Assembly: GCF_001724605.1 (NCBI RefSeq)
Contig: NZ_MEEX01000001.1
Location: 132,295-196,294 of the forward strand
DNA length: 64,000 bases
DNA from: Phenylobacterium sp. SCN 70-31
GTDB taxonomy: Bacteria > Pseudomonadota > Alphaproteobacteria > Caulobacterales > Caulobacteraceae
Direction of reading: 5' to 3'
The notes below the pieces were generated by a model. It had not been told where the DNA came from and did no database searches. It saw only the letters and a list, made by a program, of their open reading frames with translations. Position 1 is the first letter of the stretch. The number at the start of each line of letters is the position of its first letter. Shown one piece after another: positions 37,331 through 55,071 of this stretch. A program made the position numbers and the translations under genes.

Positions 37331-38290
37331 ATGCTCCCGGCCACATCATCCGCCCTGTCCGACGCCCATCTTCCCGAGTTCCCGAACCACTATCGGGGCA
37401 AGGTGAGAGACACCTACGACCTCGCCGACGGGCGGCTCATCATCATCGCGTCGGATCGGCTGAGCGCCTTCGACCGGATCCTGGCGGCCATTCCCCACAA
37501 GGGTCAGGTGCTGACACAGACGGCCCGATACTGGTTCGAGAAGACGGCGGACATCTGCCCGAACCACATCCTGGACTATCCCGACCCCAATGTGGTCGTG
37601 GGACGGCGGCTGAGCATCCTTCCGGTCGAGATCGTGGTGCGCGACTATCTCGCCGGAACGACGGGCACCTCGATCCTCAGCCTCTACAAGCAGGGTCGGC
37701 GCAGCCTGTACGGCCACACCTTTCCGGACGGCCTGCGCGACAATGCGCGCCTGCCTCAACCGATCATCACGCCCACCAGCAAGGCGTTCGACGGGGGCCA
37801 CGACGAGCCGCTGACAGCGGACGAAATCCTGGCCCGCGGGCTGCTGACGGCGACGCAGTGGGAGACCGTCTCGGCCTACGCCCTGGCGCTGTTCGATCGC
37901 GGCCGGCGGCTCGCCGAGGACCGGGGACTGATCCTGGTCGACACGAAGTACGAGTTCGGGCTCGACACGGAAGGCCGGATCGTCCTGGCCGACGAAATCC
38001 ACACCCCGGACTCCAGCCGCTATTGGATCGGCGAAACCTATCCCGAGCGGTTCGCCGCGGGAGAGCGCCCGGACTCGTTCGACAAGGACTACGTGCGCAG
38101 TTGGGTCGCGGCCCGCTGCGATCCCTATGTCGATCCCATTCCCGAGATCCCGGACGAACTGGTCGCCGGCGCCTCGAAAGTCTACGTTGACGCCTTCGAG
38201 ACGATCACGGGCCAGACGTTTCAGCCACCGGCGGCGGGCGAACCGGTGCTCGATCGCATCCGCCGCAACCTGGCGCCCTACCGCCCCTGA
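37331..38290 (+). CDS. purC: Phosphoribosylaminoimidazole-succinocarboxamide (SAICAR) synthase, long form
   Basis: [31 protein letters not shown]. 319 aa. Confidence 0.9.
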
Positions 38291-39663: not shown

Positions 39664-40116
39664 ATGGATTCTGCGGCGGTCTACTTCGTGGCCCGGCATC
39701 TCCTGGCGGCGGCCCGCCATGCGATAGATCCGCAGGAGCAACTCGCCGAACTGCCGGCCACGGAGCGGATCATCCTGCAGGATCTGGTCGAGTCCGCCCC
39801 GACCTCGATTCAGGACATCGCCCGGCGCACGCAGATCGCCCAGAGCCGGGTTTCGGCCGCGGTCCAGAAATGGCGCGAGCGCGGGCGGATCGACGCGCGG
39901 CCGGACCCGACGGACCGCCGCCGATCGATCCTGACGTCCAGCGCCACCCTCGACGCCGAGGTCCTGGCGGGAATGGGCGCTTCGGCCGACACCGTATTGC
40001 AGGCCCTCGGCGTGAACCTGAGCGCCCGGGAACGGCGATCCGTCCTCCAGGCGCTCGAGCTTCTCCATGAGAGGCTGAAACAGGCCGCACGCGCCCGAGA
40101 GTCAGAACCGCTGTGA
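39664..40116 (+). CDS. MarR-family transcriptional regulator
   Basis: Winged-helix region LPATERIILQDLVESAPTSIQDIARRTQIAQSRVSAAV...DPTDRRRSIL. ATG 39643 is an alternative start. The 3' end overlaps the convergent TonB receptor by 15 nt. Confidence 0.85.
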   Translation: MDSAAVYFVARHLLAAARHAIDPQEQLAELPATERIILQDLVESAPTSIQDIARRTQIAQSRVSAAVQKWRERGRIDARPDPTDRRRSILTSSATLDAEVLAGMGASADTVLQALGVNLSARERRSVLQALELLHERLKQAARARESEPL

Positions 40117-43100
40117 GACGTTGAGGTAGAACCGCCGTCCGCGCGGGTCGTACACCGTGGGATCGTAACGCTGGTCGTTCTCCACGAAGTACGGCGGCTT
40201 GTTCTGGAAGAGGTTGAGAACCCCGACCGTGAGCCGCGGGCCCTCGACGCCCCCACGCCATTCGGCGAAGTCGTAGGCGAACTGAACGTCGAAGGTGACG
40301 TAGGAGTCGAACCGCCGCGTGGCCAGGGCAAGGATGCCGGGCTGGGCGTCGTCGATCGTCGCCTCATAGGCCAGATTGTCGTAGCCCGAGACATAGCGGA
40401 CCGTGCCGTTCGCCGCCGCGGGACCCCGGCTCCATGTGGCGGACACATGGCCCTTCTTGTCCGGCAGCGAACGCGCGATCTTGCCGTCGCCGGTGGTGCC
40501 GGCGGCGTCCGTCACGCCCGTGCCCAGGAAGCCGTCCTCGAAGCCCGGAAGCCCGCGGATCTTGTACTGGTTCACATAGGTGAACCCACCCTCCAGCAGG
40601 ATGTCGCCCCAGTCCGTTCCGAAGCGGTAGCGCGCCGCCACGTCCACACCATCGGTGAGGACACGCCCGGCGTTGACCGAGACGATGTCGACGGTCTGGA
40701 GCGTCGCGGCCTGCGTCAGCGCCCGCGACACGCCGTCCGTGGCGTAGAGGCGGGGGTCCACGATGCAATCGCGCCGGACCAGGCCCGCCCGCAACGCGTT
40801 GGGATTGCAAGCGACGTAGGGGTTCGCCACGCCGAGCGCGGTCGACGCGGCCTCGACGTAGTTGGCGGGATTTCCGACCGCGGCGTTGAACCGGGCCACC
40901 TCGGCGTCGAGCGCCTGGACGATCGGCTGCGGCACGACCCGATCGCTGAAGTCGAACCTCCAGTAGTCGACGGACACGTACAGGCCGTCCAGCGCCCCGC
41001 CCCGCGGTTGGAAGATCAGGCCGACGTTGTAGGTGTCGGCGGTTTCAGACTTGACGTTCGGCGACGCCAGGGAACGGAAGAAAATGCTGGTGTTCTGGCC
41101 GTTCTGCACGGTCGCCGGCCTCAGTCCGGCCCGTACGTCCTGGCTCGACAGCCGGTCGATCACCATCGCGCTGTCCGCGCCGTTGCCGTTGAACACGATG
41201 CCCGTGTTGGGGGCGCGGAAGGACTTCGAATAGGAGGCGCGGAACGCCAGGGCTTCCAGCGCCTGCCAGCGAACGGCGACCTTGGGCGTCGTCTCGGCGC
41301 CGATGCCGCCGCCGTAGTCCTCGTACCGGATCGCCCACTGCGTCTGGATCGACTCCAGGAACGGCAGCTGGAGTTCGGCGAAGGCGGCGTCGACCGTACG
41401 GCGGTCCCGGAACGACCGTGTGAAGTAGCCGCCGAAGAACGCGTCGTTGGCGGCATACCGGAAGGTGGCCGGCCGCGAAGACGATGCGTAGGTCACCAGC
41501 GTCTGGAGACCTGGCTCCACCAGGTCGTAGGACAGCGCCCGCTTGTCCTCCTCGCGGCGTTGCAGGCCGACGGCGAAGGCCGCCTGGCCGCCGGGAAGAT
41601 CGAACAGATCGCCGCTCACGACCAGATCGAACGACTGCAACTCGTTGCGCCGGTCGGAAGCCGGGACCAGCGGACTGATCCAGTCCAGCATCTCGCGATC
41701 GTTCGCGAGCGCCGGGTTGCTCAAGGCGGTCAGATAGGGATTGAGGAAGTGGCAGTCGCCCTGCCCCTGATTGGTGCTGGTGACGGCGAGGGAGACGGTC
41801 TCCCGCAGGCTTTGCGGGAAGCCGGGCTGGTACTCGCGGAACAGAATGTTGTTGAGCGTCGCGTTGCCGAAGAACGGGTCCGAGTTGAGGTTGTAGGTCG
41901 TGACCCCGTTGGGAACGCACCGGGGACCGCCCAGGCCGTTGATCGCCAGTTCGGCGTTGTATCGGTTGATGGTGCGCTCGACCCGCTTCAGCCGGGTGTC
42001 GCTGTAGCTGTAGGAAAAGTCGTAGCGGAAGGACCGCCCGAAGGCGGGGAAATCGCCCTTCAGCCCGAACTGCAGGCCGCGCGTGGTCGACGTGTTCCGC
42101 GAGTCGTCGCCCCCCGAAAACGGGAAATCGGTGTTGAAGTAGACGAGGGCCGGAACGCCCAGACCGCCGTTCGCGCGATCGTTGGGGACGTTGCCGATGA
42201 CCGGCGGCGCCAGAGACGGATTCAACGCCCCCGTACTCCTCGATCCGAGACCGAAGATCGGACTGCCGGTGGGAAGGATCAGCGCCGGTCCCTGCGAGCG
42301 CATGCCGCCCGTATCCGCCCGGCGGACCGAGTTGTGGGCGTATTGCGCAAACCCGTAGAGCTTCAAGGAATCGCTTACCTCGTGAGCGAACGACACGGCG
42401 CCGCTGAATCGCTTCTGCGCGGGGTTCACGAAGCGCAGATGGGTGATGTCCTGCCCGCAGTCGGACCCGGGGGTCGAGGCCTTCTGGCTCGGGTCGAAGG
42501 CCCGGTCGGCGGTGAAGCCGAGCTGGCTGCACAGGGGGTCGGTGTAGAGCACGCTGGTGGCGCCGAAGGAGGGATCCAGCGACCGGCGCAGCGTCGTGAG
42601 GGGCTGGTTGATCCAGATCGGGTTGGGCGTGCCGCTGAGGATGCCGGCGACCTTCGAGACGCTGTTGAAGACCTGGGTGCTCGAAGGGTCGAAGCCGGGC
42701 GTGTCGCGGAGCCGGACGGCGTCGCGCTCGAAATACTCACCCCCGACCACGATGCGCGTCCGACCGGCGTTCAGGCTCCGGCCCGCAACGGCCGAGAACG
42801 TGGTGTCCGCAGGGTTCGAACCGCTGCTCATCACGTGTCGCCCGACGCTCAGTTCAAGCCCGTCGAAGCGATCCCTCATGATCAGGTTGACCACACCGGC
42901 CACCGCATCGGAGCCGTAGATGGCCGAACCGCCGTCGGTGAGCACCTCGATCCGCTCGATCATCACGGCCGGCAGGGCGTTGATGTCCACGAACTCGCTG
43001 CCGTCCTGGGTCAGGGCCGCGGCCACGACCTGGCGCTTGCCGTTGACGAGGGTCAGGGTCGAGTTCTGGCCGAGATTCCTCAGGTTGATGTTGGCCGTGC

Positions 43101-43380
43101 CCTCGATCGTCCCGTTCTCGTCGGGATTGGAATTGGTGGTGGAGCCCTGGTTGCTCTCCAGGTTCTTGACCACGTCCCAGATGGTCGCCGCGCCCTGCGC
43201 CTGGATCTGCTCCCGACCGATGACGGTCACGGGCGATGGCGCATCCGCCGGCGTGCCGGCGATCAGCGAGCCCGTCACGACGAGCTCCTCGACCTCGGAC
43301 GGCGCCGCCTGGGCCCAGGCGGCCGTCGGCAGGGCCGCACCCAGCAGCAGAATCGACCGGAGCCGTTGCAACTTCTTCAT
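40102..43380 (-). CDS. TonB-dependent outer-membrane receptor 2 (1092 aa)
   Basis: Signal peptide, TonB-box/plug (EELVVTGSLIAGTP...VTVIGREQI), a long barrel, and C-terminal YLNVSQRF. Confidence 0.9.
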   Translation of the reverse strand: MKKLQRLRSILLLGAALPTAAWAQAAPSEVEELVVTGSLIAGTPADAPSPVTVIGREQIQAQGAATIWDVVKNLESNQGSTTNSNPDENGTIEGTANINLRNLGQNSTLTLVNGKRQVVAAALTQDGSEFVDINALPAVMIERIEVLTDGGSAIYGSDAVAGVVNLIMRDRFDGLELSVGRHVMSSGSNPADTTFSAVAGRSLNAGRTRIVVGGEYFERDAVRLRDTPGFDPSSTQVFNSVSKVAGILSGTPNPIWINQPLTTLRRSLDPSFGATSVLYTDPLCSQLGFTADRAFDPSQKASTPGSDCGQDITHLRFVNPAQKRFSGAVSFAHEVSDSLKLYGFAQYAHNSVRRADTGGMRSQGPALILPTGSPIFGLGSRSTGALNPSLAPPVIGNVPNDRANGGLGVPALVYFNTDFPFSGGDDSRNTSTTRGLQFGLKGDFPAFGRSFRYDFSYSYSDTRLKRVERTINRYNAELAINGLGGPRCVPNGVTTYNLNSDPFFGNATLNNILFREYQPGFPQSLRETVSLAVTSTNQGQGDCHFLNPYLTALSNPALANDREMLDWISPLVPASDRRNELQSFDLVVSGDLFDLPGGQAAFAVGLQRREEDKRALSYDLVEPGLQTLVTYASSSRPATFRYAANDAFFGGYFTRSFRDRRTVDAAFAELQLPFLESIQTQWAIRYEDYGGGIGAETTPKVAVRWQALEALAFRASYSKSFRAPNTGIVFNGNGADSAMVIDRLSSQDVRAGLRPATVQNGQNTSIFFRSLASPNVKSETADTYNVGLIFQPRGGALDGLYVSVDYWRFDFSDRVVPQPIVQALDAEVARFNAAVGNPANYVEAASTALGVANPYVACNPNALRAGLVRRDCIVDPRLYATDGVSRALTQAATLQTVDIVSVNAGRVLTDGVDVAARYRFGTDWGDILLEGGFTYVNQYKIRGLPGFEDGFLGTGVTDAAGTTGDGKIARSLPDKKGHVSATWSRGPAAANGTVRYVSGYDNLAYEATIDDAQPGILALATRRFDSYVTFDVQFAYDFAEWRGGVEGPRLTVGVLNLFQNKPPYFVENDQRYDPTVYDPRGRRFYLNVSQRF

Positions 43381-43567
43381 CTCGTCCCCTCCATGTTCCG
43401 CCTCCGGCTCAGGGGCCGGGCTGGCGCGCTCCGTTCGTGGCGTTCGCCTTCTCGGTGGCGCTTCGCCGCGATGGCTAGGGCGTGGCGCCGATACGCGGCA
43501 ACGGTCGCCCCCAAACTTTTCCGGATGGCGGGACGGCCGCTCGCGACCCCCTCAATCCGCATCCGAG

Positions 43568-43583
43568 AAGATGCATCTTGACA
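43568..43583. promoter_or_regulatory. Perfect 12-bp palindrome AAGATGCATCTT overlapping a TTGACA hexamer
   Basis: Palindrome at 43568..43579 and TTGACA at 43578..43583, followed by an AT-rich ATATATATT stretch. Located in the divergent TonB-receptor-2 / iclR region. Confidence 0.55.
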
Positions 43584-43645
43584 GATATATATTAGCAGCG
43601 CACCTCCTTTCGCGAGAGAGGACGACCGCTTTGGTGAGGCCGGAT

Positions 43646-44449
43646 ATGAGTTCAACCGACGCGCCGCGCGCGCGCGGCGAGGACGGCGCCGAGCTTGTCC
43701 AGTCGCTGGTCCGAGCGTTCGCGATGCTGGACCAGCTCGCGGCGCACGACGAAGGCCTGAAGCTCACCCAACTCGCGCGGCTGGTGGATCTGCCGCGCTC
43801 CACGGCCCATCGCCTGCTCACGACCATGAGCACTCTCAGGTACATCGAGTTCGATCCGGCCACGCATCGATGGCTCGTCGGCGTCAGGGCGTTTTCCCTG
43901 GGCAACGCCTACGGCCGCCTTCGCGGCCTGCCGCGACTGGCGCGGCCCCTGCTCCGGGCGTTGCAGTTCAAGGTGCGCGATACGGTGAGCCTCGCCGTCC
44001 CCGTGGGCGGCGCGCTGTACTACGCCGCCCAGCTCGAGGGCGCGACCGGCCGCGGTCCGCTGCGGCCTGGCCAGTCGCTGCCGTTCCACGCGACGGCCGT
44101 GGGCAAGGCCTTCCTGGCCCATCTCAGCGAGACCGAGATCGAGGCGCTCCTCGGCGACGTCGGGCTGACGGGCCTGACGCCGGCCAGCCGCACGACCCGG
44201 GCCGGTCTGGCGGATGAGCTCCGTCGGGTTCGCGACGATGGAGTCGCGTTCGACAAGGAGGAGTGCGTGACGGGACTCCGGTGCGTGGCCGTCCCCGTGT
44301 TCAACGCCCGGGGACAGGTCTGCGGCGCGCTGTCGGTCAGCGGTCGCTCCGACCGCATGCCCGAGATGCGGATGCAGGCGCTCGCCCCGACCCTCGACGA
44401 GGCCGCCCGCGGCCTCGCGGCCCACACGGCGGGTTGGGCGCTCGAATAG
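43646..44449 (+). CDS. IclR-family transcriptional regulator
   Basis: N-terminal HTH (VQSLVRAFAMLDQLA...LKLTQLARLVDLPRSTAHRLLTTM) and a C-terminal effector domain. The start lies inside the longer track ORF 42920..44449. Confidence 0.88.
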   Translation: MSSTDAPRARGEDGAELVQSLVRAFAMLDQLAAHDEGLKLTQLARLVDLPRSTAHRLLTTMSTLRYIEFDPATHRWLVGVRAFSLGNAYGRLRGLPRLARPLLRALQFKVRDTVSLAVPVGGALYYAAQLEGATGRGPLRPGQSLPFHATAVGKAFLAHLSETEIEALLGDVGLTGLTPASRTTRAGLADELRRVRDDGVAFDKEECVTGLRCVAVPVFNARGQVCGALSVSGRSDRMPEMRMQALAPTLDEAARGLAAHTAGWALE

Positions 44450-44479
44450 CCTTGCGGGCCCTCGACGGCTCGGCGCACC

Positions 44480-45919
44480 TCATTCTCCCTTCTCCTCGCG
44501 CAGCTCCGCCAGTCGGCGAAGCGTCTGCTCATGCATCCGCCGGGTGATGCCATAGCCGCGCAACGCATAGGCGGCGGCGGCGTAGAGAAGGAAGATCGCC
44601 GGCGCATAGGTCATGCCCAACCTCAGGAGCGCGTCGGCCGGCACCTCGCCCGGACGGGCCTGCTGCGGGAACTGCGCGAGCGCGAGAAGAAGCGCGGCCG
44701 CCGAGATTCCGATGCCTGAGACCGCCTTGTTCACAAAGGCCACGGCGGCGAAGAACAGACCTTCCGATCGCCGGCCGGTCTTCAACTCCCAGTCCTCGAC
44801 GACATCAGCCACCATGGACGAGCACAGGATCGTCGCCGTGATCGTGCAAGCGCCGGCGACGACGTCCTGGGTCAGCACCAGGGGAAACAACCAGGGACTG
44901 CCGTTGTCCGGCAGGACTCCGAGCAGGCGCAGCACGACGGCGCCGCTCGCCACCGCAGCGCCGACGACGAGAAGCGCGCGGGCCGCGACCGGCTTTTCGA
45001 CCCGCCGGGCCACCACCTGCGCCAGGGCGACCGCGATGAACGCCGATCCCACGCCCGCCACCGCGAAGAGCGCGATCTGGTCTGCGGTGAACTCCCAGAA
45101 GTAGAGGCTGAAATAGAGCGACGCTGCGCGGGACAGGCCGGCGGCGGCGGCGCAGAACAGGGTCGCGGCGAGCACCGAGGCGAACGTACGGTGCCGAAGC
45201 ACGGCGAGGATCTCGGGCCCGAGCCGCAACTGGGGCCCGGTCGCCGGAGGCGCCCGCGAGATCAGGACCCGGCGCTGCGTGCCGATCGCCGACGCCAGCA
45301 TCGTCGCCAGCATCACCAGGGCCGCGGCCACCCCATAGTCCGCATAGCCCGCTGGATTGAGCTGGCCCACGGGATGGCCGGCGTCGGGCCGGAGGAACAC
45401 CTTCATCGCCGCGATGTAGAGGGCCAGGCCGCCCAGCCAGCCCATGAGGTAGCGATAGGACAGAAGCCGAGTGCGGGCGTCGTAGCCGCTCACCAGTTCC
45501 GGGGCGAGCGCCGCCGAGGGAATCTCGTAGCCGGTGATGAACGTGCGCACCAGGAGCGCCATCAGCCCGAGATAGGCGACCAGCCCAACCTCGCCCAGGT
45601 GCTCGGGAGGACGCCAGAGGAGGCAGAACGTCACCGCGGCCGGGATCGCCGAGAGATACATGAACGGGTGGCGCCGGCCCCAGCGGGACCGAAGGTTGTC
45701 GGACAGGCGGCCGACCAGCGGGTCCAGACAGGCCTCGAAGATGAGCACGGCCATGATCACCAGCCCCACGGCCTGGGTCGGCGCGCCCATCACCTGCGCA
45801 TAGAAGATCAGGAGGAAGGCCGAGAACCCGCCGTCCTTGATGCCGAACGGAACCGCGCCCAGCGCGTAGGAAAAGAGCGTCGCCCGTGACGGAGAAGCGG
45901 GTTGCTGCGCGGTCTTCAC
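44480..45919 (-). CDS. MFS/GPH-family permease 2
   Basis: 479 aa, polytopic. Paralogue of 35443..36942. Confidence 0.8.
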   Translation of the reverse strand: MKTAQQPASPSRATLFSYALGAVPFGIKDGGFSAFLLIFYAQVMGAPTQAVGLVIMAVLIFEACLDPLVGRLSDNLRSRWGRRHPFMYLSAIPAAVTFCLLWRPPEHLGEVGLVAYLGLMALLVRTFITGYEIPSAALAPELVSGYDARTRLLSYRYLMGWLGGLALYIAAMKVFLRPDAGHPVGQLNPAGYADYGVAAALVMLATMLASAIGTQRRVLISRAPPATGPQLRLGPEILAVLRHRTFASVLAATLFCAAAAGLSRAASLYFSLYFWEFTADQIALFAVAGVGSAFIAVALAQVVARRVEKPVAARALLVVGAAVASGAVVLRLLGVLPDNGSPWLFPLVLTQDVVAGACTITATILCSSMVADVVEDWELKTGRRSEGLFFAAVAFVNKAVSGIGISAAALLLALAQFPQQARPGEVPADALLRLGMTYAPAIFLLYAAAAYALRGYGITRRMHEQTLRRLAELREEKGE

Positions 45920-45994
45920 GTGTCGGCTCCGTCGGATGATGCGCCGGTCCTAGCCGACGCGACCGCCGCCTCCCCGGGCCCGCGGACGGCTTTC

Positions 45995-46024
45995 CCGCGA
46001 TGCGGAACGCCTCGGACATCGCGG
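45995..46024. promoter_or_regulatory. Inverted repeat CCGCGATG-N14-CATCGCGG in the divergent MFS-2 / dehydratase promoter region
   Basis: 8-bp arms. Candidate operator, for example for the IclR protein. It was found by position only. Confidence 0.3.
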
Positions 46025-46100
46025 TGATCGTCCTGCCCGACGGTCCGGCGCTATGCAGTCGAGGGGCGCGGGTCCCAGAGGCAGCTTACAGGAGTCCGGA

Positions 46101-47921
46101 GTGCGGAAGGTGGTTTCAGGCAGGGCCTGGCGCTTCGGGGACAATATCGACACCGATCAGCTGGCGCCGCTGCGGACGTTCTCGGCCGACTGGGAAACGA
46201 CCCGCGCCGCGATGCTGCCTGCCCGGCCGGACTTCGCGCGCGAAGCGGCGGTTGGCGACATGGTGGTGGCCGGACGGAACTGGGGCTGTGGCTCCAGCCG
46301 CGAGCAGGCGCCGCTCAACCTGAAACGGCTCGGACTGTCCGCGGTCGTGGCGGAGTCGTTCGGGCGCATCTTCTACCGGAACGCCATCGCGGTCGCATTG
46401 CCTTGCGTCATCTGTCCGGGCGTGGCGGACGCGGTCGAGGACGGCGACGAGGTGGAGATCGACCTGGCCGCCGGCGTGGTGCGGAACCTGACGCGAGGTT
46501 CGACCCTCCACACCGCTCCGCCGACCCCGGAGGTGCTGCGGATCCTCGAAGCCGGCGGCATTCTCAACACCCTGGGCGATCCGCCTCCCCGGCGTCCCGC
46601 ACAGGCGGCTTCCGCGGCCCCGACCCGCGCACGCACGATGGCCGAGAAGGTGCTGCAACGCACGTCCGGCGGCGCGGACGCCAGACCGGGCGACTTCGTC
46701 ATGGCGCGCGCCGATCGCGTCGTGCTCGGAGAGTACTTCTACTACTGCGCCCAGCAACTGAAGCGGGCGGGCATTACGAAGCTTCCCGATCCCGACCGGG
46801 TCAGTGCGACCCTGACCGGCGCCTTCCCCGCGCCGAACGCCGAAACGGCCACCCTCCATGTCCGCATTCGCGAGATCGCGGCCGAACTCGGTGTCGATCG
46901 CTTCTATCCGCACGACGGCATCATCAACCAGGTGATCGTCGAGAAGGGCGACGCCCTGCCCGGGAGCCTGATGTTCGGCAGCGACTCGCACAGCACCACG
47001 TACGGCGCCGTCGGGGCGGCCGGTTCCGGTCTCGGGATGTCGGACCTCACCTACCTCCTGGCCCGGGGGGAAACCTGGCTTCAGGTTCCGGAAAGCGTCC
47101 GCTTCGAGCTGGGCGGCCGGCCGGGAGCCAGCGTCATGGCCAAGGATATCATCCTCCACCTCCTGCATAGGTTCGGCAGCGATCACGCCCAGTACCGGTC
47201 GGTCGAATTCGGCGGGGCCTGGGCCGACCAGATGACGGTTTCGAGCCGCATGACCCTCTGCAACATGGGGGTGGAGATGGGCGCGAAGTTCGCCATGTTC
47301 GCCGCCGACGCGCGCACGCTCGAGTATCTGCGCCCGCGGACGTCCGCCGACCTCGAGCTTTTCGGCCCCGACCCGGGCGCGACCTACGCGGCGCGGCACG
47401 AAATCGACGTCTCGGCGATCCCGCCGTACGTGGCGCGGCCGCACGATCCGGCCAACAGCGGCCCGGTCGGAGAGTGTGCGGGCGTCGCCATCCAGCAAGC
47501 CTTTCTCGGCTCCTGCACCAACGCCCGCCTGGAGGATTTCGCGATCGCGGCGACGCTGCTCCGCGGCCGCCGTGTCTCATCGGGGACACGGCTGGTGGTC
47601 ACGCCGGCGTCGCAGACGGTGATGCTCGAGGCGCTTCGTCGCGGCTACATCGAGACGCTGATCGAGGCGGGCGCCCACATCACGCCGGCGGGATGCGGCG
47701 CCTGCGCGGGCAGCGTCGGGGGCGTGGTGGGGCCGGGTGAGGTCTGCCTGTCGACCACGAACCGGAACTTCCGCGGGCGGATGGGCAGCCCCGACGCCCA
47801 CATCTACCTCGCCTCGCCCGCCACCGTGGCGGCGTCGGCCGTCACGGGCAGGATCACCGATCCACGGGAACTCTGGCCATCCGGCGCCCCAGGCGTCTCC
47901 GAGCTGGAGGCGGCGAACTGA
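46101..47921 (+). CDS. Fused aconitase-family dehydratase: LeuD-like swivel domain (N-terminal) + LeuC/HacA-like large domain (C-terminal)
   Basis: N-terminal part has GDNIDTDQL and GRNWGCGSSREQAP. A Pro/Ala linker follows at about 46575..46637. The large part then has GSDSHSTTYGA, FLGSCTNARLEDF and TTNRNFRGRMG. It is a single uninterrupted ORF. AGGAG lies before GTG 46101. Confidence 0.8.
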   Translation: MRKVVSGRAWRFGDNIDTDQLAPLRTFSADWETTRAAMLPARPDFAREAAVGDMVVAGRNWGCGSSREQAPLNLKRLGLSAVVAESFGRIFYRNAIAVALPCVICPGVADAVEDGDEVEIDLAAGVVRNLTRGSTLHTAPPTPEVLRILEAGGILNTLGDPPPRRPAQAASAAPTRARTMAEKVLQRTSGGADARPGDFVMARADRVVLGEYFYYCAQQLKRAGITKLPDPDRVSATLTGAFPAPNAETATLHVRIREIAAELGVDRFYPHDGIINQVIVEKGDALPGSLMFGSDSHSTTYGAVGAAGSGLGMSDLTYLLARGETWLQVPESVRFELGGRPGASVMAKDIILHLLHRFGSDHAQYRSVEFGGAWADQMTVSSRMTLCNMGVEMGAKFAMFAADARTLEYLRPRTSADLELFGPDPGATYAARHEIDVSAIPPYVARPHDPANSGPVGECAGVAIQQAFLGSCTNARLEDFAIAATLLRGRRVSSGTRLVVTPASQTVMLEALRRGYIETLIEAGAHITPAGCGACAGSVGGVVGPGEVCLSTTNRNFRGRMGSPDAHIYLASPATVAASAVTGRITDPRELWPSGAPGVSELEAAN

Positions 47922-48985
47922 TGCGCAAACGCATAGCGGTCATTCCCGGAGAAGACGGGGGGCGCGAGGCCATGGAAGCGGCCCTGGGCGTCCTCGAACA
48001 GATGGCGCTCGCCGCCGACTTCAGCTTCCCGCTCGCCGCCGTCCCGGCAGGCGCCGACGGCCAGGCCGGCCTGTCGCCCGAGGCGCGCGCGGGCATCGAC
48101 GCGGCGGACGCCACTTTCTTCGGCGCGACCGACGGTGGATCGTTCGCGGCGCTCGCATACCTGCGCTGGGGCAAGGACGCCTATGCGAACGTCCGGCCCA
48201 CCCGCTGGTGGCCGGGATGCGCCAGCCCCCTGCGGGCGCCGGAGGACATCGACCTGGTGATCGTGCGGGAAAACCTGGAGGACGCCTATGTGCGCCTCGA
48301 GGGCGACCTGCGGGATCTCGAACCGCTCGATCTGGCGAGCCGCCCCCTGCGCCGCAAGGCGCACGAGCTGGGACCAGGCCGCTACGCCATCAAGGCGATC
48401 ACCGAGGCCGGCTCGCGGCGTATCGCCCGGTTCGCATTCGAGGTCGCCCGGCGGCGAAAGGCGGCCGGCGGGCCAGGCCGGGTCACGGCGGGGGCCAAGT
48501 GGAACATGCTGCCGCAGAGCGACGGCCTCTTCGTGGAGGTCGCCCGGGCCGTGGGGGCCGACTATCCCGACATCGCATTCGACACGCTGCTGGTGGACGA
48601 CCTCGCCCAGAAGCTCGTGATGGCGCCGGGCCGGTTCGACGTGATCCTGCTGCCCAACCTGTACGGCGACATCCTGTCGGACGCCGCCGCGGCGCTGACC
48701 GGCGGCCTGGGCGTGGCGCCGAGCGGCTGCTACGGGCCGGACTACGCCTACTTCGAACCGGTTCATGGAACCGCGCCCGACATCGCCGGGCGTGGTCGCG
48801 TCAACCCCACGGCGACGCTCCTGGCCGGCGCGATGATGCTGGAACACATCGGACTGGAGCCCGGCGCCCAGCGCCTGCGCGCAGCGCTCGGCCGCGTCTA
48901 TGCGGCGGGTCGCTGGCTGACGCCGGACCAGGGCGGCTCGGCGACGACCGGCGACTTCTGCCGCGCGCTCATCGGCGAACTGTGA
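47921..48985 (+). CDS. Isocitrate/isopropylmalate-dehydrogenase-family beta-decarboxylating dehydrogenase
   Basis: NLYGDILSDAAAALTGGLG signature. The N-terminal IAVIPGEDGGRE deviates from the LeuB GDGIGPE. The start overlaps the upstream stop (TGATG). Confidence 0.8.
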   Translation: MRKRIAVIPGEDGGREAMEAALGVLEQMALAADFSFPLAAVPAGADGQAGLSPEARAGIDAADATFFGATDGGSFAALAYLRWGKDAYANVRPTRWWPGCASPLRAPEDIDLVIVRENLEDAYVRLEGDLRDLEPLDLASRPLRRKAHELGPGRYAIKAITEAGSRRIARFAFEVARRRKAAGGPGRVTAGAKWNMLPQSDGLFVEVARAVGADYPDIAFDTLLVDDLAQKLVMAPGRFDVILLPNLYGDILSDAAAALTGGLGVAPSGCYGPDYAYFEPVHGTAPDIAGRGRVNPTATLLAGAMMLEHIGLEPGAQRLRAALGRVYAAGRWLTPDQGGSATTGDFCRALIGEL

Positions 48986-48992
48986 GGCCCGC

Positions 48993-50390
48993 ATGCGCCC
49001 AGCGACCCTCTTCGAGAAGCTCTGGAACGCCCATCGCATCGCCGACGTCGGCGACGGGGCCGACCTGATCCGCATCGACCGCCACTTCCTGCACGACCTC
49101 AGCGGCCCCCTGTCGCTGAAGATGCTTGGCGACCGAGGGCTGCGGGTGCGCGCCCCGCAACTGACCTTCGCGATGGCCGACCACGGAGTTCCCACGGCTC
49201 CGGGCGCATGGCTCGAAGGCAACGAGCGGGCGCTCCAGGCTCTGCGGGCCGCATGCGCCCGTCACGGCGTGCGCCTCTTCGACCTGGGGTCCGCAGAACA
49301 GGGCATCGTGCACGTCACAGGGCCGGAACTCGGCCTGACATTGCCGGGTCTCTCGATCGTCTGCGGCGACAGCCACACCTCCACCCACGGAGCCTTCGGC
49401 GCCCTGGCGTGGGGCGTCGGCAACACCGAAGTGCTGCACGTTCTGGCCACCCAGGCGCTGGTCGTGCCGCGGCCCGCGACCATGCGCATCCGTTGCGAGG
49501 GGCGGCTGGCGCCCGGCGTGGCCGCGAAGGACCTGATCCTCACGCTCATCGGCCGCCTCGGGACGGCCGGCGCGTCGGGCCACGCGGTCGAGTTCGCCGG
49601 GACCGCGATCGACGCCATGTCGATGGAGGACCGCATGTCGCTATGCAACCTCGCGACCGAGCTGGGCGCCACCTTCGCCCTGATCGCGCCGGACGCGGTG
49701 ACGGAGGCCTACGTGCGCGACCGCGCCTATGCGCCGCGGGGCGCGGAATGGACCGACGCGGTGGCGGCGTGGCGCCGGCTGCCGACCGACCCGGAAGCGA
49801 CGTTCGACAGCGAAGTGGTGGCCGACGCCGCCGCCGTCGCGCCGCAGGTGACCTGGGGCGTCACCCCACAGGACGTCGCTGGAATCGACGGACGAGTCCC
49901 CGATCCCGCCGCGGCGCCGGACCCGGCGACCCGACGGCGCTGGGAGGCGGCCCTCGACTACATGGGTCTTCAACCTGGGGCGCCGATCTCGGGTGTGGCC
50001 ATCCAGAACGTCTTCATCGGGTCCTGCGCAAACGGACGGCTCGGCGACCTCCAGGCCGCCGCCCATGTCGTGCGCGGCCGTCGCGTGCCGGCGCATGTGC
50101 GCGCCTGGATCGTCCCCGGGTCTCAGGCCGTGAGCCAGGCGGCCCGCGCCGAGGGCCTGGATCGCGTGTTCCTCGATGCCGGATTCGCCTGGCGGGAGCC
50201 CGGATGCTCGATGTGCCTGGGCATGAACGGCGACGTCGTCGCACCCGGCGAACGCTGCGTGTCCACTTCGAACCGAAACTTCGTCGGCCGCCAGGGCCCA
50301 GGGGCCAGGACGCATCTCGCCAGTCCGCAGATGGCCGCGGCCGCGGCGGTGGCGGGCGCCCTGGTCGACGTCAGGGAGATACTGCGATGA
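48993..50390 (+). CDS. Aconitase-family dehydratase large subunit (bacterial LeuC-type paralogue)
   Basis: TLFEKLWNAH, IDRHFLHDLSGP (LeuB-pathway LeuC has HEVTSP), CGDSHTSTHGAFGA, GSCANGR, and STSNRNFVGRQG. Confidence 0.8.
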   Translation: MRPATLFEKLWNAHRIADVGDGADLIRIDRHFLHDLSGPLSLKMLGDRGLRVRAPQLTFAMADHGVPTAPGAWLEGNERALQALRAACARHGVRLFDLGSAEQGIVHVTGPELGLTLPGLSIVCGDSHTSTHGAFGALAWGVGNTEVLHVLATQALVVPRPATMRIRCEGRLAPGVAAKDLILTLIGRLGTAGASGHAVEFAGTAIDAMSMEDRMSLCNLATELGATFALIAPDAVTEAYVRDRAYAPRGAEWTDAVAAWRRLPTDPEATFDSEVVADAAAVAPQVTWGVTPQDVAGIDGRVPDPAAAPDPATRRRWEAALDYMGLQPGAPISGVAIQNVFIGSCANGRLGDLQAAAHVVRGRRVPAHVRAWIVPGSQAVSQAARAEGLDRVFLDAGFAWREPGCSMCLGMNGDVVAPGERCVSTSNRNFVGRQGPGARTHLASPQMAAAAAVAGALVDVREILR

Positions 50391-51031
50391 CGGCGTTCAC
50401 ACGACTGACCTCCAAGGCCGTTCCGCTGCTGCTGGACGACGTGGACACCGACATCATCACGCCCATCGGACGCGTGCTGCAGGGACGCGAGGCGATGGTG
50501 AAGTACGCCTTCGAACCTCTCCGCTTCGACGAGACGGGCGCGCCGCGCGCCGACTGCCCGCTCAACGACCCTGTGTTCCAGGGGGCGGAGATCCTGCTGG
50601 CCGGCGCCAACTTCGGATGCGGGAGTTCCCGCGAGACGGCGGCGTGGGCGGTGAAGGCTCTCGGGTTCCGGGCCGTCGTCGCCACGGGCTTCGGCGCCAT
50701 CTTCGAGTCCAACTGTTTCCGGAACGGCATCCTGCCGGTCAGCCTTCCGTCCGACGCCGTTCGCGCCCTGGCCGAGACCGCGCGGGACGGCGGCGATCTG
50801 AGCCTGGATCTCGACGCCCGCAGCGTGGACGACGGCCGTACGCGCCTCACCTTTCCGATCTCCGATTTCCGGCGCGAAGGTCTCCTCAGGGGGGTGGACG
50901 AACTCGACCTGATCCTAGGCCGCCTGGGGGACATCGCCGCGTTCGAGGCCGCGGATCGCGCTCTCCGGCCCTGGGTGTCTCCCGTCCGCCCCTCGGCCGC
51001 CGTCGCGCCGAACCTCTCCGACGGGCGTTAA
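50387..51031 (+). CDS. Aconitase-family dehydratase small subunit (LeuD-type)
   Basis: DDVDTDIITP and GANFGCGSSRETA. ATG 50387 overlaps the upstream stop (ATGA). Confidence 0.8.
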   Translation: MTAFTRLTSKAVPLLLDDVDTDIITPIGRVLQGREAMVKYAFEPLRFDETGAPRADCPLNDPVFQGAEILLAGANFGCGSSRETAAWAVKALGFRAVVATGFGAIFESNCFRNGILPVSLPSDAVRALAETARDGGDLSLDLDARSVDDGRTRLTFPISDFRREGLLRGVDELDLILGRLGDIAAFEAADRALRPWVSPVRPSAAVAPNLSDGR

Positions 51032-52116
51032 GGGCGGAACGCCCCGGGTCCGAGATCGCCCGACACGCGCGCGTAGAACGGGTCGCCGGGCGCGATCGAT
51101 CCGCGCCGGACGACATTCCCCGTGGCCGCAGACTTGTACAGGCTCGAAACCAGATCGAGGACCGGCCGGACTTCGTCGAGAGAGACCTCGACGTCGCCTT
51201 CGCCAAGCGCCGCCGACGCGAACCGGCCGAACTGACGTGTCATGCGGCTGGGTCCGGCTCCGGCTTCCCGTTCCCATGCGCTCAGAAGGGGCTCGTACCC
51301 TGGCCTCGCCGTCAGCCGCCAATCGCCGGGGGCCTCGCTGTAGAGCGCGTTGAACTCGACGGTGGCGTACTGGAAATCGATACGGAGCCGCGACTCCTCC
51401 CGCGGGGAAAGTACGCTGTTGACCACTGTGGCCAAGGCGCCGCTCGCGAACCGCACGGCCGCCACCGACACGTCCTCCACGTCGATCTCGCGATCCAGGG
51501 TCGACGCCAGGGCGGCCACGTCGACCCAGTCCCCGAGCAGCCACAGCGCAAGATCCATGAGGTGGATGCCGACGCCCACCGTGGGACCGCCCAACTCGCT
51601 CTCCCAGCGCCCGCGCCAGGGTGCGGCGTAGTAGGCCTCGTCGCGGAACCAGGCGGTTTCGACGCTGACCGCCAAGGGTCGTCCGAACGCCTGGCGATCG
51701 ATCAGATCTCGAAGCCGTTGCGTCCGCGGGCTGAAACGCCATTGCGCGACCCCGGCGCATCGCGCGCCCGACCGGCGTTCGGCGGCCGCGATCCGGTCCA
51801 GTTCGGCCAGGCCGCCGCAGAGCGGCTTCTCGCACATGACCCAGGCTCCGGCGTCCAGGCAGGCTATGGCCTGATCGGCGTGAACCCCGGGCGGGGAGCA
51901 GATATGAGCCAGGTCCGGTCGCATGGCCGTCAACAACGTGTCGAGATCCGCATAGGCCGCCGGCGCCCCGTGGCGGCGGGCGAAGGCTTCCCGCGCCACC
52001 GGATCGGGCTCGACCACGGCGGCGAGCCGGACATGGGGCGAGGCCGCCAACGCCCGAGCATGCGCCTGAGCGACCTGGCCGGCGCCCACGATCACGGTGT
52101 CCAGCACCGCGGTCAC
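51028..52116 (-). CDS. Gfo/Idh/MocA-family NAD(P)-dependent oxidoreductase
   Basis: N-terminal Rossmann VIVGAGQVAQAHARAL and MCEKPL. Last gene of a five-gene coupled operon. Confidence 0.85.
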   Translation of the reverse strand: MTAVLDTVIVGAGQVAQAHARALAASPHVRLAAVVEPDPVAREAFARRHGAPAAYADLDTLLTAMRPDLAHICSPPGVHADQAIACLDAGAWVMCEKPLCGGLAELDRIAAAERRSGARCAGVAQWRFSPRTQRLRDLIDRQAFGRPLAVSVETAWFRDEAYYAAPWRGRWESELGGPTVGVGIHLMDLALWLLGDWVDVAALASTLDREIDVEDVSVAAVRFASGALATVVNSVLSPREESRLRIDFQYATVEFNALYSEAPGDWRLTARPGYEPLLSAWEREAGAGPSRMTRQFGRFASAALGEGDVEVSLDEVRPVLDLVSSLYKSAATGNVVRRGSIAPGDPFYARVSGDLGPGAFRP

Positions 52117-53045
52117 GCCCCCGTCCCCATTCCAACGCCGCCGCCGTCTGGCGCAGCGGCGGCCAGGAGCGACGCGATCGCAGGCGCGGTCAGCCGGCCG
52201 TCAGCGATGTGGACCTCGCACGTCAGGCGCAGGGTCTCTCCCGAGGCGAGCTGTTGCGGCGCCGCGTAGAACGGCGCGGGCCCCATGATCGCGTAGGGCT
52301 CGTTCCGGACGAACCAGGGCGGCGGCGGGGCGTCATCCGGAACGCGCATCACTAACGTGGTGGCGCGCCCGCTGCCGTCATGCCGACCGACAAAGGCCAG
52401 CCAGGGCAGCCGGGCGCCCATGGCGTCCGGCACGCGTTCCGGGGCGACGACCTGCCCGCCTGTGAAACTCCTGGGACCCCGCCAGACCCAGCCGCCATAC
52501 CCCGCGGCCGGGCGGCCTTCCACGGTAGGGCTCGAGAGACGCAGCGGCCCGGACGTGCGGTTGACGATGCGGCTGTCCAGCCCGAGCCGCCAGACGCCCT
52601 GCGCCGCCCCTGCGGCGTCGAACGTCAGGGTCCGGGCTTCCGCGGCGACCTCGGCTCCGGACGGCGCCAGCCAGGACAGGGTCTGCCCGAGGTCCAGTCG
52701 GGCGCCCTGCGCCACGATGTGGTCGAAGGCCTCATGGCGCATCCAGCCGTTGTTGCGACGATCGACGTAGCCTTCGCCGGCGACGTAGGTCGGCCCACCC
52801 CAGAAGTTCCAGTCGCCCACATAGGGCAAGGCGAGCTGGAAACCGTTGTGCCAGGGATGATCGTGGGGTCGCACCACCGTCACGTCCTCGCCGGTCAGGG
52901 ACCTGACGGGCGCGAGATAGGGCTTTGGCGCATACGCAGGGCGGGCGTCCGGCCGGAAGACGTAGCGGGCCAGGGTCAGACCGTCGCGCAGGATGTCGAC
53001 GCCCGCGTCGTCGAATCTCGGCGTCACGGGCGTGGCCTCCGTCAT
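52113..53045 (-). CDS. PmoA-family / DUF6807-like protein
   Basis: HDHPWHNGFQLALP...WNFWGG motif, and its context next to Gfo/Idh/MocA genes. The family was recognised from memory only. Confidence 0.5.
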   Translation of the reverse strand: MTEATPVTPRFDDAGVDILRDGLTLARYVFRPDARPAYAPKPYLAPVRSLTGEDVTVVRPHDHPWHNGFQLALPYVGDWNFWGGPTYVAGEGYVDRRNNGWMRHEAFDHIVAQGARLDLGQTLSWLAPSGAEVAAEARTLTFDAAGAAQGVWRLGLDSRIVNRTSGPLRLSSPTVEGRPAAGYGGWVWRGPRSFTGGQVVAPERVPDAMGARLPWLAFVGRHDGSGRATTLVMRVPDDAPPPPWFVRNEPYAIMGPAPFYAAPQQLASGETLRLTCEVHIADGRLTAPAIASLLAAAAPDGGGVGMGTGA

Positions 53046-54214
53046 GGCTGTGCGATTCCGGCCGTCTCCAGGAACGCCCTCAGGCGCCGCGCCGCCGGCT
53101 CGGGATCGGACAGCAGCCCGGCCGAATCGGCCAGGACGACCAGGCGGCACAGGTGAGGAATCGAACGCCGCGCCTCCAGCCCGTCGATCATGCGGAAGTG
53201 CGGCTGACGCCCCGCGAGAAAGGCGATGAAGGTCAGATCGGTCTTGTAGAAGTAGGTGGGCGCCGCGAAGGCGTGACGCGCGAAGGGGACACACGACTCC
53301 AGCCGCGCCCGGAAGCCATCAGGGTCACCCGCGTCCAGCCGGGCGAAGGCGTCCGCCGCCGCCGGGGCGATGGCGTCGAACACGCCCAGCAGCGCATCGC
53401 TGTGGCCTTCGGCGTCGCCCGCGATGAGTTCGGGGAAGTTGAAGTCGTCGCCGGTGAACATCCGCACCCCTTCGGGCAGACGGCGACGCATCCGGATCTC
53501 GCGGCCGGCGTCCAGAAGCGAGAGCTTGATGCCCGCCACCCGTCCGGCGTGAGCGCCCAATACGTCCAGGCAGGCCTCGGTGGCGCGATCGAGGTCCGCA
53601 TCCCCCCAGTAGCCGGCCAGGGCGGGATCGAATGCCGGGCCCAGCCAGTGCAGGATCACGCCGTCGTCCAGTTCGGCGAGAACCCGGCCGTAGACCGTGG
53701 CGTAGTCGTCGGGGCTCCGCGCCAGACGCGCAAGCTCCCGGCTGGCCATCAGCACGACCCCCGCGCCCGCGCTCTGGATGGCCCGCGCCTGGAGGAGATA
53801 GGCCGAGACCACCTCGTCCAGCGCGCCCAGGCTGCCGGGCGGGCAATGGTCGGTCTGCGCGCCCGCCACGATCCGTCCGCCGAGGGCGCGGGCATCACGG
53901 GCGCTGCGCTGGATCAGCTCCAGGGCCGTGGGCCAGTCGAGGCCGGAGCCCCGCTGGGCCGTGTCCATGGCTTCGGCCACGCCGAAGCCCAGGCCCCAGA
54001 GGTCGCGGCGGAGCGCGAGGGTGGCGTCCCAGTCGAGCCGCGCTCGCCCATCGCTCGACGGCGTGTCGAGCGGGTCGGCCACCACGTGGGCGGCGGCGAA
54101 CGCCTGACGGCTCGCCGGTGGCCTGGCCGTTCTCGGCGTCGACACCGGTTCGGAAAGCGTGAAGAGGGTGAGATCGCCGCTTTCGGATACGAGGCGGACG
54201 GTGCGGTTGTTCAT
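53042..54214 (-). CDS. DUF993-like (DapA-like TIM-barrel) protein
   Basis: 390 aa. Called on size, composition and its typical neighbourhood (xylose-isomerase-like TIM barrel plus Gfo/Idh/MocA). The family was recognised from memory only. Confidence 0.45.
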   Translation of the reverse strand: MNNRTVRLVSESGDLTLFTLSEPVSTPRTARPPASRQAFAAAHVVADPLDTPSSDGRARLDWDATLALRRDLWGLGFGVAEAMDTAQRGSGLDWPTALELIQRSARDARALGGRIVAGAQTDHCPPGSLGALDEVVSAYLLQARAIQSAGAGVVLMASRELARLARSPDDYATVYGRVLAELDDGVILHWLGPAFDPALAGYWGDADLDRATEACLDVLGAHAGRVAGIKLSLLDAGREIRMRRRLPEGVRMFTGDDFNFPELIAGDAEGHSDALLGVFDAIAPAAADAFARLDAGDPDGFRARLESCVPFARHAFAAPTYFYKTDLTFIAFLAGRQPHFRMIDGLEARRSIPHLCRLVVLADSAGLLSDPEPAARRLRAFLETAGIAQP

Positions 54215-55071
54215 GGGCGGCGAACCTCGCGGGACTCGAGCACGACGGCGACGTGACGCTGCAGACCGTCCAGGGCCTGATCCAGGACCTCCTGGGGATC
54301 CCGGGCCCATACGGTCGGATTGAAGACCTCCACCTCGATGGGGCCGCGATAGCCGGCCGCCTCCCCCAGTGCGACGAAGCCGGCGATATCTATGCACCCG
54401 TCCCCGGGCATGCCGCGCCCGTTGAGGTGATCCGGCGGCGGCGACAGCCAGTCGGCGAGCTGGAGGCCGTGGATGTGCTCTGCCGACGCTTCAACTCCGG
54501 CGGGCAACTCGGGGTCCCACCAGAGGTGATAGCTGTCGAGCATCACCCCGACGCCCTCGTTCGCCCGGGCCAGCGACAGGGCCTGGACGAGCGAGACGAT
54601 GACCGATCTGTCCGCGCAGTACGTGGGGTGCAGCGGCTCGATCGAGAGACGCACCCCCGCGGTCTTCGCATAGGCGGCGGTCTGGGCGACGGCGTCGGCG
54701 ACCCTGCGCCGCGCGTCCGAGAGCGACTCCCCCACCGGGGGCCCCACCACCAGCACCAGCGTCTCGGCGTCGAGCGCGGCCGCTTCGTCCACGGCGCGGA
54801 AGTTGTCCTCCAGCCGCCGCCGTCGCTCGGCGGGCGTCGAGGCTCCGAACCAGCCACCGCGACAGAGGGAGGACACCGCCAGGCCGGTGTGTTCCAGCGC
54901 CTTCCGCACGGCCGGCAGGCCGACTTCGGCCACGGGATCACGCCAGAGGCCGACCCAGCGGAGACCGGCCCTGGCGCTCGCCTCCACGACCTCCACGGCG
55001 TTCCACCGCGGAACCGTGGCCTGGTTGAGGCTGAACCGCTCCCGCCACGGCGTTGCGAGATCCCGCGTCAT
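54211..55071 (-). CDS. Sugar-phosphate isomerase/epimerase (xylose-isomerase-like TIM barrel)
   Basis: 286 aa. LSIEPLHP and DSYHLWWDP metal-site-like motifs. 4-nt overlaps on both sides. Confidence 0.75.
   Translation of the reverse strand: MTRDLATPWRERFSLNQATVPRWNAVEVVEASARAGLRWVGLWRDPVAEVGLPAVRKALEHTGLAVSSLCRGGWFGASTPAERRRRLEDNFRAVDEAAALDAETLVLVVGPPVGESLSDARRRVADAVAQTAAYAKTAGVRLSIEPLHPTYCADRSVIVSLVQALSLARANEGVGVMLDSYHLWWDPELPAGVEASAEHIHGLQLADWLSPPPDHLNGRGMPGDGCIDIAGFVALGEAAGYRGPIEVEVFNPTVWARDPQEVLDQALDGLQRHVAVVLESREVRRP

Follow-up and report, generated by a model that had tools for sequence, protein, structure and literature searches.

Why should a genome that holds a complete canonical set of leucine genes also carry, in one short operon, two different aconitase-family isomerases on either side of an isopropylmalate dehydrogenase-like enzyme? 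The question is posed by a locus of Phenylobacterium sp. SCN 70-31 that lies within a window of 64,000 nt (the whole stretch of DNA analyzed; positions 132,295–196,294 of contig NZ_MEEX01000001.1). Coordinates below are positions in this window unless a contig or another locus is named, and families were assigned by profile searches (Pfam-type domains and NCBIfam models with their curated cutoffs). Four enzyme genes follow one another on the forward strand: a permuted Fe-S hydro-lyase fusion of 606 aa (46101–47921, within an open reading frame [ORF] that runs from 46053), an Iso_dh-family dehydrogenase (47921–48985; Iso_dh E 3e-73), a LeuC-like large subunit of 465 aa, here called LeuC2 (48993–50390; E 4e-154, TIGR00170), and a LeuD-like small subunit of 214 aa, LeuD2 (50387–51031; TIGR00171). 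The fusion and dehydrogenase genes meet in TGATG (1-nt overlap), a gap of 7 nt separates the dehydrogenase gene from leuC2, and leuC2 and leuD2 overlap by 4 nt in ATGA, indicating that the four genes form one operon (46101–51031, forward strand). A sequence-only reading of this DNA had described four coupled genes encoding a fusion, a member of the isopropylmalate/isocitrate dehydrogenase family and LeuC- and LeuD-like subunits, and the junctions and strong family matches uphold that description. We consider it very likely, judging from sequence, that the operon does not belong to the leucine pathway, and on balance probable that it is an accessory catabolic or salvage operon by which an imported acid, either a 2-substituted malate or a cis-alkylmaleate, would be turned into a 3-substituted malate and, from there, a 2-oxo acid.

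The case against a role in leucine synthesis begins elsewhere in the genome, which is 99% complete. Canonical leuC (774 bits), leuD (240 bits) and leuB (418 bits) lie together on contig 4 and leuA, recognized by its LeuA dimerization domain, on contig 12; the genes of the window cluster are hence extra copies. The sequence-only reading had held that these are not leucine-pathway genes and that the cluster has no leuA. Both statements stand, since the genome's own leuB, leuC, leuD and leuA mean that the cluster does not hold the only copies, and no HMGL-like/leuA gene occurs inside the window (all five HMGL-like genes of the genome lie outside it). A third LeuC/LeuD-like pair is present ~47 kb upstream of the window (contig 1, 84780–86761), in an operon with a family-III CoA-transferase and opposite an HMG-CoA-lyase-like gene. 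Its pocket motif is HERTGG, and with the LeuC model it scores 547, under the cutoff. The set has the look of a catabolic one of the citramalyl-CoA or itaconate type, and the genome thus employs LeuCD-type enzymes in several non-leucine contexts. Compared with the leucine enzymes LeuCD and LeuB, the operon draws on the same three enzyme families, the same chemistry of [4Fe-4S]-dependent dehydration and rehydration followed by oxidative decarboxylation, and the same catalytic residues; it differs in being paralogous, in lacking leuA, in its altered pocket motifs and in a dehydrogenase that falls outside the LeuB clade.

The first gene of the operon most likely starts at GTG 46101, with GGAG six bases ahead (46091–46094), and this start gives the 606 residues of both the sequence-only reading and the public record. 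Residues 23–173 match Aconitase_C/LEUD_arch (TIGR02087, 167.8 bits against a cutoff of 109) as well as the "LeuD/DmdB family" subfamily model, and after a linker of ~20 residues, residues 195–606 form a HacA/IPMI_arch-type large domain (NF001614, 477 bits against 385) that also exceeds the subfamily cutoffs of TIGR01343 (450 against 386) and TIGR02086 (453 against 410). The small swivel domain is therefore N-terminal, as had been read from the sequence. The protein stays under all equivalog cutoffs (LEU2, 369 against 611; HacA_Meth, 350 against 550; HacB, 150 against 230), and no NCBIfam model spanning both domains was matched. It has the three cysteines of the cluster as well as the DSH motif, all of them invariant among 22 fused homologues. 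The fused families that are covered by models place the large part first (fungal homoaconitase, TIGR00139; aconitate hydratase, PRK07229), and the large domain also comes first in Leu1, in conflict with the entry for fungal isopropylmalate isomerase (IPMI) in a published survey of domain order. An AlphaFold2 model of the fusion, built on fused homologues, is confident (pLDDT 88.8, pTM 0.89), the ~20-residue linker alone being weaker. The survey in question lays out the domain-order classes of aconitase-family proteins and places fungal IPMI among those with an N-terminal domain 4 (PMC8184944).

The sequence-only reading had likened this arrangement to the permutation of AcnB, and the model agrees along the whole chain: in Foldseek the complete fusion aligns with Escherichia coli AcnB (1L5J) with a template-modeling (TM) score of 0.82 by query, over 703 alignment columns at 20% identity. 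Both proteins have the order 4-1-2-3, with the swivel domain 4 ahead of domains 1–3; AcnB, however, has 865 residues rather than 606, the fusion has nothing before its swivel domain and so lacks the N-terminal HEAT-like domain, and it scores 97 bits against a cutoff of 1287 with the AcnB model TIGR00117. In the large-domain tree the small-then-large fusions form one clade (98% support in the Shimodaira–Hasegawa-like approximate likelihood ratio test [SH-aLRT]; 23 rows), sister to unfused bacterial HacA-type large subunits whose pairs occur in "large-small-Iso_dh" trios. Because this clade is nested in the branch of IPMI and homoaconitase, the permutation arose independently of AcnB, which gives the AcnB-type domain order two separate origins, one of them in the fusion clade. 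The clade is a rare one, with ~21 clusters at 90% identity among 5.8 billion proteins. A wider occurrence of the small-then-large fusion in Hadarchaeota and Thermoplasmata was considered and rejected, since mapping the domains separately resolved these cases into adjacent large-then-small genes.

The large domain had been called archaeal or HacA-type; the subfamily models match that description, but the nearest relatives are bacterial, not archaeal. The closest solved relatives of the two fusion domains are nonetheless those of Methanocaldococcus jannaschii (MJ0499/MJ1277 and MJ1003/MJ1271; 4KP1, 4KP2, 3VBA, 2PKP), at 40% and 46–48% identity and TM scores of 0.93 and 0.90 by target, the former for the large domain of the model against the isopropylmalate isomerase 4KP1. 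Whereas the archaeal loci encode separate large-then-small genes, the window encodes one 606-aa chain with the small domain first, which remains under the equivalog cutoffs and has a shorter specificity loop. This loop reads YLVY in the M. jannaschii isopropylmalate isomerase and YLRT in its homoaconitase; across the fused clade and its unfused sister it is reduced by two residues and contains Leu, Phe, Tyr or Trp, without a conserved basic residue.

The dehydrogenase is likewise recognizable by family and distinct within it. It falls under every NCBIfam equivalog cutoff, scoring 161.9 against 353.2 with the LeuB model TIGR00169, 200.2 against 470.4 with the tartrate/D-malate dehydrogenase model TIGR02089, and below half the cutoffs of the equivalog models for isocitrate dehydrogenase (ICDH) and homoisocitrate dehydrogenase (HICDH). 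The catalytic residues R82, R92, R116, Y123, K193, D226, D250 and D254 are invariant in the homologue alignment, and a 19-residue insert after the catalytic Tyr, together with a shortened loop before the first Arg, is common to all close homologues. The departures from the LeuB and LeuC signatures that had been noticed in the sequence (GEDGGRE at the position of GDGIGPE; HDLSGP for HEVTSP) were both confirmed, the former by alignment with LeuB and the latter against LeuC of E. coli and of this genome. The best solved relatives of the dehydrogenase are NAD-isocitrate dehydrogenases and the Thermus homoisocitrate dehydrogenase; the protein lacks their carboxylate-binding residues, with Ala/Ala in place of ICDH Ser113/Asn115 and another Ala in place of Arg85 of Thermus HICDH, where its relatives have Phe or Leu. 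It retains APDIAG, a position at which NAD-dependent members of the family carry Asp, and is probably NAD-dependent. In the tree, its homologues form a separate clade (100% SH-aLRT) on a long stem (1.58), apart from E. coli LeuB, the genome's own LeuB, E. coli DmlA (which groups with a Roseicella homologue in another clade) and archaeal LeuB-like genes. The clade is large, with thousands of matches, the top 120 of which are 56–68% identical and bear generic names only; a look-up in the ESM Atlas also returned generic family names only.

The last two genes lie closer to their canonical counterparts. LeuC2 is 53% identical to E. coli LeuC and passes TIGR00170 by a narrow margin (609.2 against 560.25; the canonical copy of this genome reaches 773.9), and LeuD2 passes TIGR00171 (138.9 against 116.25). 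The LeuC2 cluster ligands C345, C405 and C408 and the residues D126-S127-H128 are invariant in the alignment. Its pocket motif is HDLSGP, as against HEVTSP/HEVTTP in E. coli and in the genome's own canonical LeuC, and the substrate loop of LeuD2 reads TPIGRVLQG where canonical LeuD has IPKQFLK. LeuC2 forms a clade (97% support) with two homologues from metagenomes or metagenome-assembled genomes (MAGs), those of loci L108 (62% identical) and L113 (57%). All three share HDLSGP, and the LeuD2 loop is shared by L108 and recurs in similar form at L113. The best 80 hits of LeuC2 among GTDB species genomes are canonical LeuC proteins at 49–56% identity, with canonical leuB beside most of them; the motif was readable in 66 of these hits, and it is HEVT[ST]P in 65 and HEVSSP in one, HDLSGP occurring in none (0/66).

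What the operon might do is suggested by loci at which its parts recur. The HDLSGP-type LeuCD pair adjoins a dehydrogenase of the same clade in all three cases, namely in the window, at L108, where a GntR regulator is followed by Iso_dh-LeuC-LeuD with a 1130-aa TonB receptor nearby, and at L113 in an acidobacterial genome, where genes for a major facilitator superfamily (MFS) transporter, an alpha/beta-hydrolase, LeuC, LeuD and Iso_dh lie together. Unfused HacA-type large-small-Iso_dh trios are found at L107 and L272; the latter is accessory to its genome, as higher-scoring Iso_dh and aconitase-family genes occur elsewhere in it. The closest fused relatives, 60–65% identical and metagenomic, belong to a separate conserved module (L103, 10001–14038; L105, 8001–12301; L190, 7106–12406) of an MmyB-like (MLTR_LBD) regulator, the fusion, an isocitrate lyase (ICL)/phosphoenolpyruvate-mutase-type lyase, an isochorismatase, an alpha/beta-hydrolase and PrpF, a combination that resembles, by analogy, the Mii-DmdAB-Dml steps in nicotinate fermentation. 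For more distant fused relatives, the neighbors are an MttB-family methyltransferase and an aldehyde dehydrogenase. All of these contexts of the fused relatives are catabolic in appearance.

The catabolic or salvage reading is favored by the leu paralogy, the lack of a synthase gene and the setting beside an IclR regulator, a permease and a receptor, and also by the accessory distribution of the operon, the recurrence of its parts with transporters and hydrolases, and the specificity changes shared across each clade. Beyond what can be read directly at the locus (gene content, operon structure, intact catalytic residues, leu paralogy, clade membership and synteny), we infer a direction of flux, a route of uptake, a mode of regulation and a class of substrate. 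The type of chemistry encoded is clear, with two hydro-lyases for interconverting the 2-hydroxy and 3-hydroxy (or unsaturated) forms of a substituted malate-type acid and one dehydrogenase for its oxidative decarboxylation. In the route that we propose, the organic acid, which would be a 2-substituted (R)-malate or else the corresponding cis-2-substituted maleate and would most likely carry an uncharged substituent, enters the cell, possibly by way of the TonB receptor together with the MFS_2 permease. Two [4Fe-4S] hydro-lyases would dehydrate and rehydrate it to a 3-substituted malate, and the Iso_dh enzyme would oxidize and decarboxylate the 3-substituted (2R)-malate with NAD+ to a 2-oxo acid that could enter central or branched-chain metabolism. 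The hydro-lyases may split the half-reactions between them, in the manner of AcnD and AcnB in the methylcitrate cycle; two aconitase-family enzymes are known to share one isomerization in the case of AcnD with AcnA or AcnB (PMC8184944). Alternatively, they may cover two substrate ranges that converge on one shared dehydrogenase. The operon was probably acquired horizontally, and the IclR protein probably controls it. A bolder version of the catabolic reading, which we hold only tentatively, is that the operon encodes an undescribed route for alkyl- or aryl-malates or maleates, in which the fusion and LeuCD act sequentially, dividing the half-reactions like AcnD and AcnB, and feed a new and widespread dehydrogenase clade; the acids might, for example, be plant- or fungus-derived citramalate, 2-isopropylmalate or benzylmalate-type compounds.

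Several observations weigh against this catabolic picture or parts of it. From the hydrophobic residues in the specificity elements one might expect a substituent without charge (H, alkyl or aryl), but this can be only a weak hint: the dehydrogenase of locus L153 sits in a lysine cluster, where homoisocitrate is the expected substrate, and yet has Trp at the Arg85 position, because of which we demoted the Arg85-equivalent residue as an indicator of substrate charge. LeuC2 and LeuD2 score above the LeuC and LeuD cutoffs, so that true isopropylmalate isomerase activity is possible for the pair. Among GTDB genomes, most members of the dehydrogenase clade are without a neighbor of the aconitase family. 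The full four-gene arrangement was found only in this genome and on one contig 98–99% identical to it, so the pairing of two isomerases has no independent replicate. Finally, no IclR operator or promoter shared by the two divergent intergenic regions was found, only unrelated GC-rich palindromes.

The dehydrogenase clade also occurs in settings of other kinds. In ~40 marine Pseudomonadales genomes, the clade dehydrogenase has no aconitase-family gene within 10 kb. At L120 (5526–15724), in a marine Azotimanducaceae MAG, the one such locus with a full annotation of its surroundings, a homologue 55% identical to the dehydrogenase likewise has no aconitase-family gene nearby, its neighbors being a PhyH-type and two TauD-family dioxygenases together with a P450 and a TonB receptor; there the hydroxy acid may be made by hydroxylation instead of isomerization. 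L153 (3911–11053), in a Ktedonobacteraceae MAG, is a LysW-type alpha-aminoadipate lysine cluster with an amino-acid kinase, an aminotransferase-M20 fusion, homocitrate synthase and HacA-type large and small subunits, whose dehydrogenase occupies a long, uncertain branch inside the clade.

Of the claims made in the sequence-only reading, that of a catabolic, non-leucine function is thus favored by paralogy and context, whereas that of a substrate processed twice, or through two stereochemistries, fares less well, as each isomerase type occurs elsewhere alone with the dehydrogenase clade. For the same reason the operon may merge two trios whose isomerases do not work one after the other, each acting on its own class of malates (e.g., with short versus bulky substituents) and one dehydrogenase serving both, with a broader substrate range, and not the solution of a stereochemical problem, as the outcome. 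Synteny makes such a merger at least as likely as a split of half-reactions, though as an account of the operon we regard it as possible rather than probable: HacA-type trios (L107, L272) and LeuCD-type trios (L108, L113) do exist separately, and the dehydrogenase gene sits between the two isomerase genes, as two fused trios would leave it, while the nearest fused relatives of the fusion pair with lyases and not with a dehydrogenase, so that the fusion might just as well be a dedicated hydratase working ahead of LeuCD. It seems very improbable that these are spare biosynthetic isozymes, duplicating the isopropylmalate or citramalate isomerase and the dehydrogenase of leucine synthesis or of the pyruvate route to isoleucine. 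LeuC2 and LeuD2 do exceed equivalog-domain cutoffs (609 against 560 and 139 against 116), LeuC2 shares just over half of its residues with E. coli LeuC (53%, as given above), and the closest solved relative of the fusion is the M. jannaschii isopropylmalate/citramalate isomerase; yet the canonical leuA/B/C/D set elsewhere is complete, the dehydrogenase reaches only 162 bits of the 353 set for LeuB and branches apart from it, the pocket motifs differ, and the cluster lacks a synthase, has regulatory and transport genes around it, and showed no counterpart in those relatives that were searched.

Two further explanations concern the substrate. The operon could degrade a tricarboxylate, a citrate or homocitrate analogue, derived for instance from a carboxylate siderophore imported by the TonB receptor, being isomerized to an isocitrate or homoisocitrate analogue and decarboxylated. 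This would fit the NAD-isocitrate and homoisocitrate dehydrogenases that are the best solved relatives of the dehydrogenase, the clade member in the alpha-aminoadipate lysine cluster of L153, the match of the fusion to a homoaconitase-family subfamily model and the large TonB receptor next door. It is unlikely, however, given that the residues for the extra carboxylate are missing (Ala/Ala at Ser113/Asn115, Ala at Arg85), that the small-domain specificity loop has no conserved basic residue, that the branch of L153 is long and uncertain, and that the receptor falls short of the cutoff in all siderophore-receptor models. A maleate or citraconate route appears distinctly unlikely as well. Here the fusion would act as a maleate-type hydratase yielding D-malate or D-citramalate, a D-malate-type dehydrogenase would form pyruvate or 2-oxobutyrate, and LeuCD would act on a methyl-branched intermediate. 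Close fused relatives do lie beside isochorismatase-family and alpha/beta-hydrolase genes (which we take to be the families of the maleamate amidase NicF and the N-formylmaleamate deformylase NicD), PrpF and an ICL-type lyase, and the small domain matches the "LeuD/DmdB family" model. But E. coli DmlA and its close homologue fall in a clade other than that of the dehydrogenase, which scores 200 against a cutoff of 470 with the tartrate/D-malate dehydrogenase model, and the window cluster has no amidase, deformylase, lyase or PrpF genes.

Known systems offer partial precedents for the catabolic reading. DmdAB and maleate hydratase are LeuCD-type hydratases used catabolically on cis-alkylmaleates. 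DmdAB of Eubacterium barkeri, from nicotinate fermentation, and maleate hydratase resemble the fusion in that its small domain fits the "LeuD/DmdB family" and its fused relatives are linked to a lyase and PrpF, whereas the window cluster has a dehydrogenase where the DmdAB pathway has dimethylmalate lyase, a comparison made by family names and pathway steps. PrpF and an ICL-family lyase accompany relatives of the fusion much as PrpF and PrpB accompany AcnD, which works with PrpF and AcnB or AcnA; unlike the 2-methylcitrate cycle, the window has no PrpF, lyase or methylcitrate synthase and its pathway ends in a dehydrogenase, and the fusion scores 83 bits against a cutoff of 1420 with the AcnD model. 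We found no curated family or paper describing the permuted fusion, the dehydrogenase clade or the HDLSGP LeuC subclade, and searches of the literature on maleate and dimethylmaleate hydratase, catabolic isopropylmalate isomerase paralogues and aconitase-superfamily phylogeny yielded no description of the module.

Automatic annotation labels all four proteins as leucine biosynthesis or "isocitrate/isopropylmalate" enzymes, and such labels inflate apparent pathway redundancy and hide catabolic capacity. Beside the fusion, the unnamed dehydrogenase clade, with its diagnostic 19-residue insert, occurs in soil and marine bacteria and adjoins either type of isomerase or Fe/2-oxoglutarate dioxygenases; the LeuCD subclade with changed pocket motifs is a third testable entity. 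Once a substrate is assigned, thousands of genes from metagenomes would gain an annotation, and bacterial use of branched hydroxy-dicarboxylic acids could come to light.

Upstream of the operon lie the genes that give it its regulatory and transport context. The cluster had been placed downstream of an IclR regulator and an MFS permease and next to a 1092-aa TonB receptor; the regulator and the receptor are as described, and the permease is present but lies on the opposite strand. The IclR-family regulator (43568–44449, forward strand) matches HTH_IclR (3e-17) and IclR_C (3e-35), and its best NCBIfam match is BhcR, at 203 bits under a cutoff of 350. In the ORF from 43568 the HTH starts as late as residue 46, so the protein may begin at GTG 43634. 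A perfect palindrome, AAGATGCATCTT (43561–43586), overlaps ATG 43568 and a TTGACA hexamer, and it would be an operator or promoter element if the protein starts at GTG 43634. The MFS_2 (GPH-type) permease (44480–45919, reverse strand; MFS_2 E 5e-89) points away from the fusion gene, the two being separated by a 180-bp intergenic promoter region (45920–46100) that contains the GGAG noted above; the permease scores 155 bits under a GPH subfamily cutoff of 231 and is one of 7 paralogues in the genome, with a best same-genus match of 57% identity. MFS_2 permeases are strongly expanded in the genus, in tandem arrays of up to five (e.g., G110 contig 1, 817–823 kb). The TonB-dependent outer-membrane receptor (40102–43380, reverse strand; Plug and TonB_dep_Rec_b-barrel) is transcribed divergently from the IclR gene and falls under every NCBIfam cutoff for siderophore, B12 and haem receptors; it may be the uptake component, although its membership in the system is uncertain. 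Neither sigma-70-like nor terminator-like sites were detected in the two divergent intergenic regions.

The region has a G+C content of ~70%, which gives rise to many spurious ORFs, and the G+C content of the operon does not stand out. A search of 100 sampled same-family genomes (6 of them of the same genus) gave no match to the fusion or the dehydrogenase, the TonB receptor had none at E ≤ 1e-150 in 40 genomes of the genus (18 candidates scored per genome), and a DUF993 gene further downstream was likewise unmatched in 40 same-genus genomes. With the receptor and the DUF993 gene unmatched and the permease represented by paralogues only, the operon lies within a wider species-specific accessory region. 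Insertion boundaries could not be defined by same-genus synteny, the whole neighborhood being accessory. This accessory region (40102–56213) is made of several catabolic operons. The stop of leuD2 abuts that of a convergent Gfo/Idh/MocA gene, which belongs to an unrelated-looking Gfo/Idh/MocA-DUF6807-DUF993-TIM-barrel operon on the opposite strand. Beyond the receptor, a 319-aa SAICAR-synthase-like gene (37331–38290) has its best matches, at ~73–75% identity, in Microvirga, Bosea and Rhizobiaceae, with 71% to a Phenylobacterium MAG, and, instead of the housekeeping copy, it may represent a second, accessory gene of the purC type.

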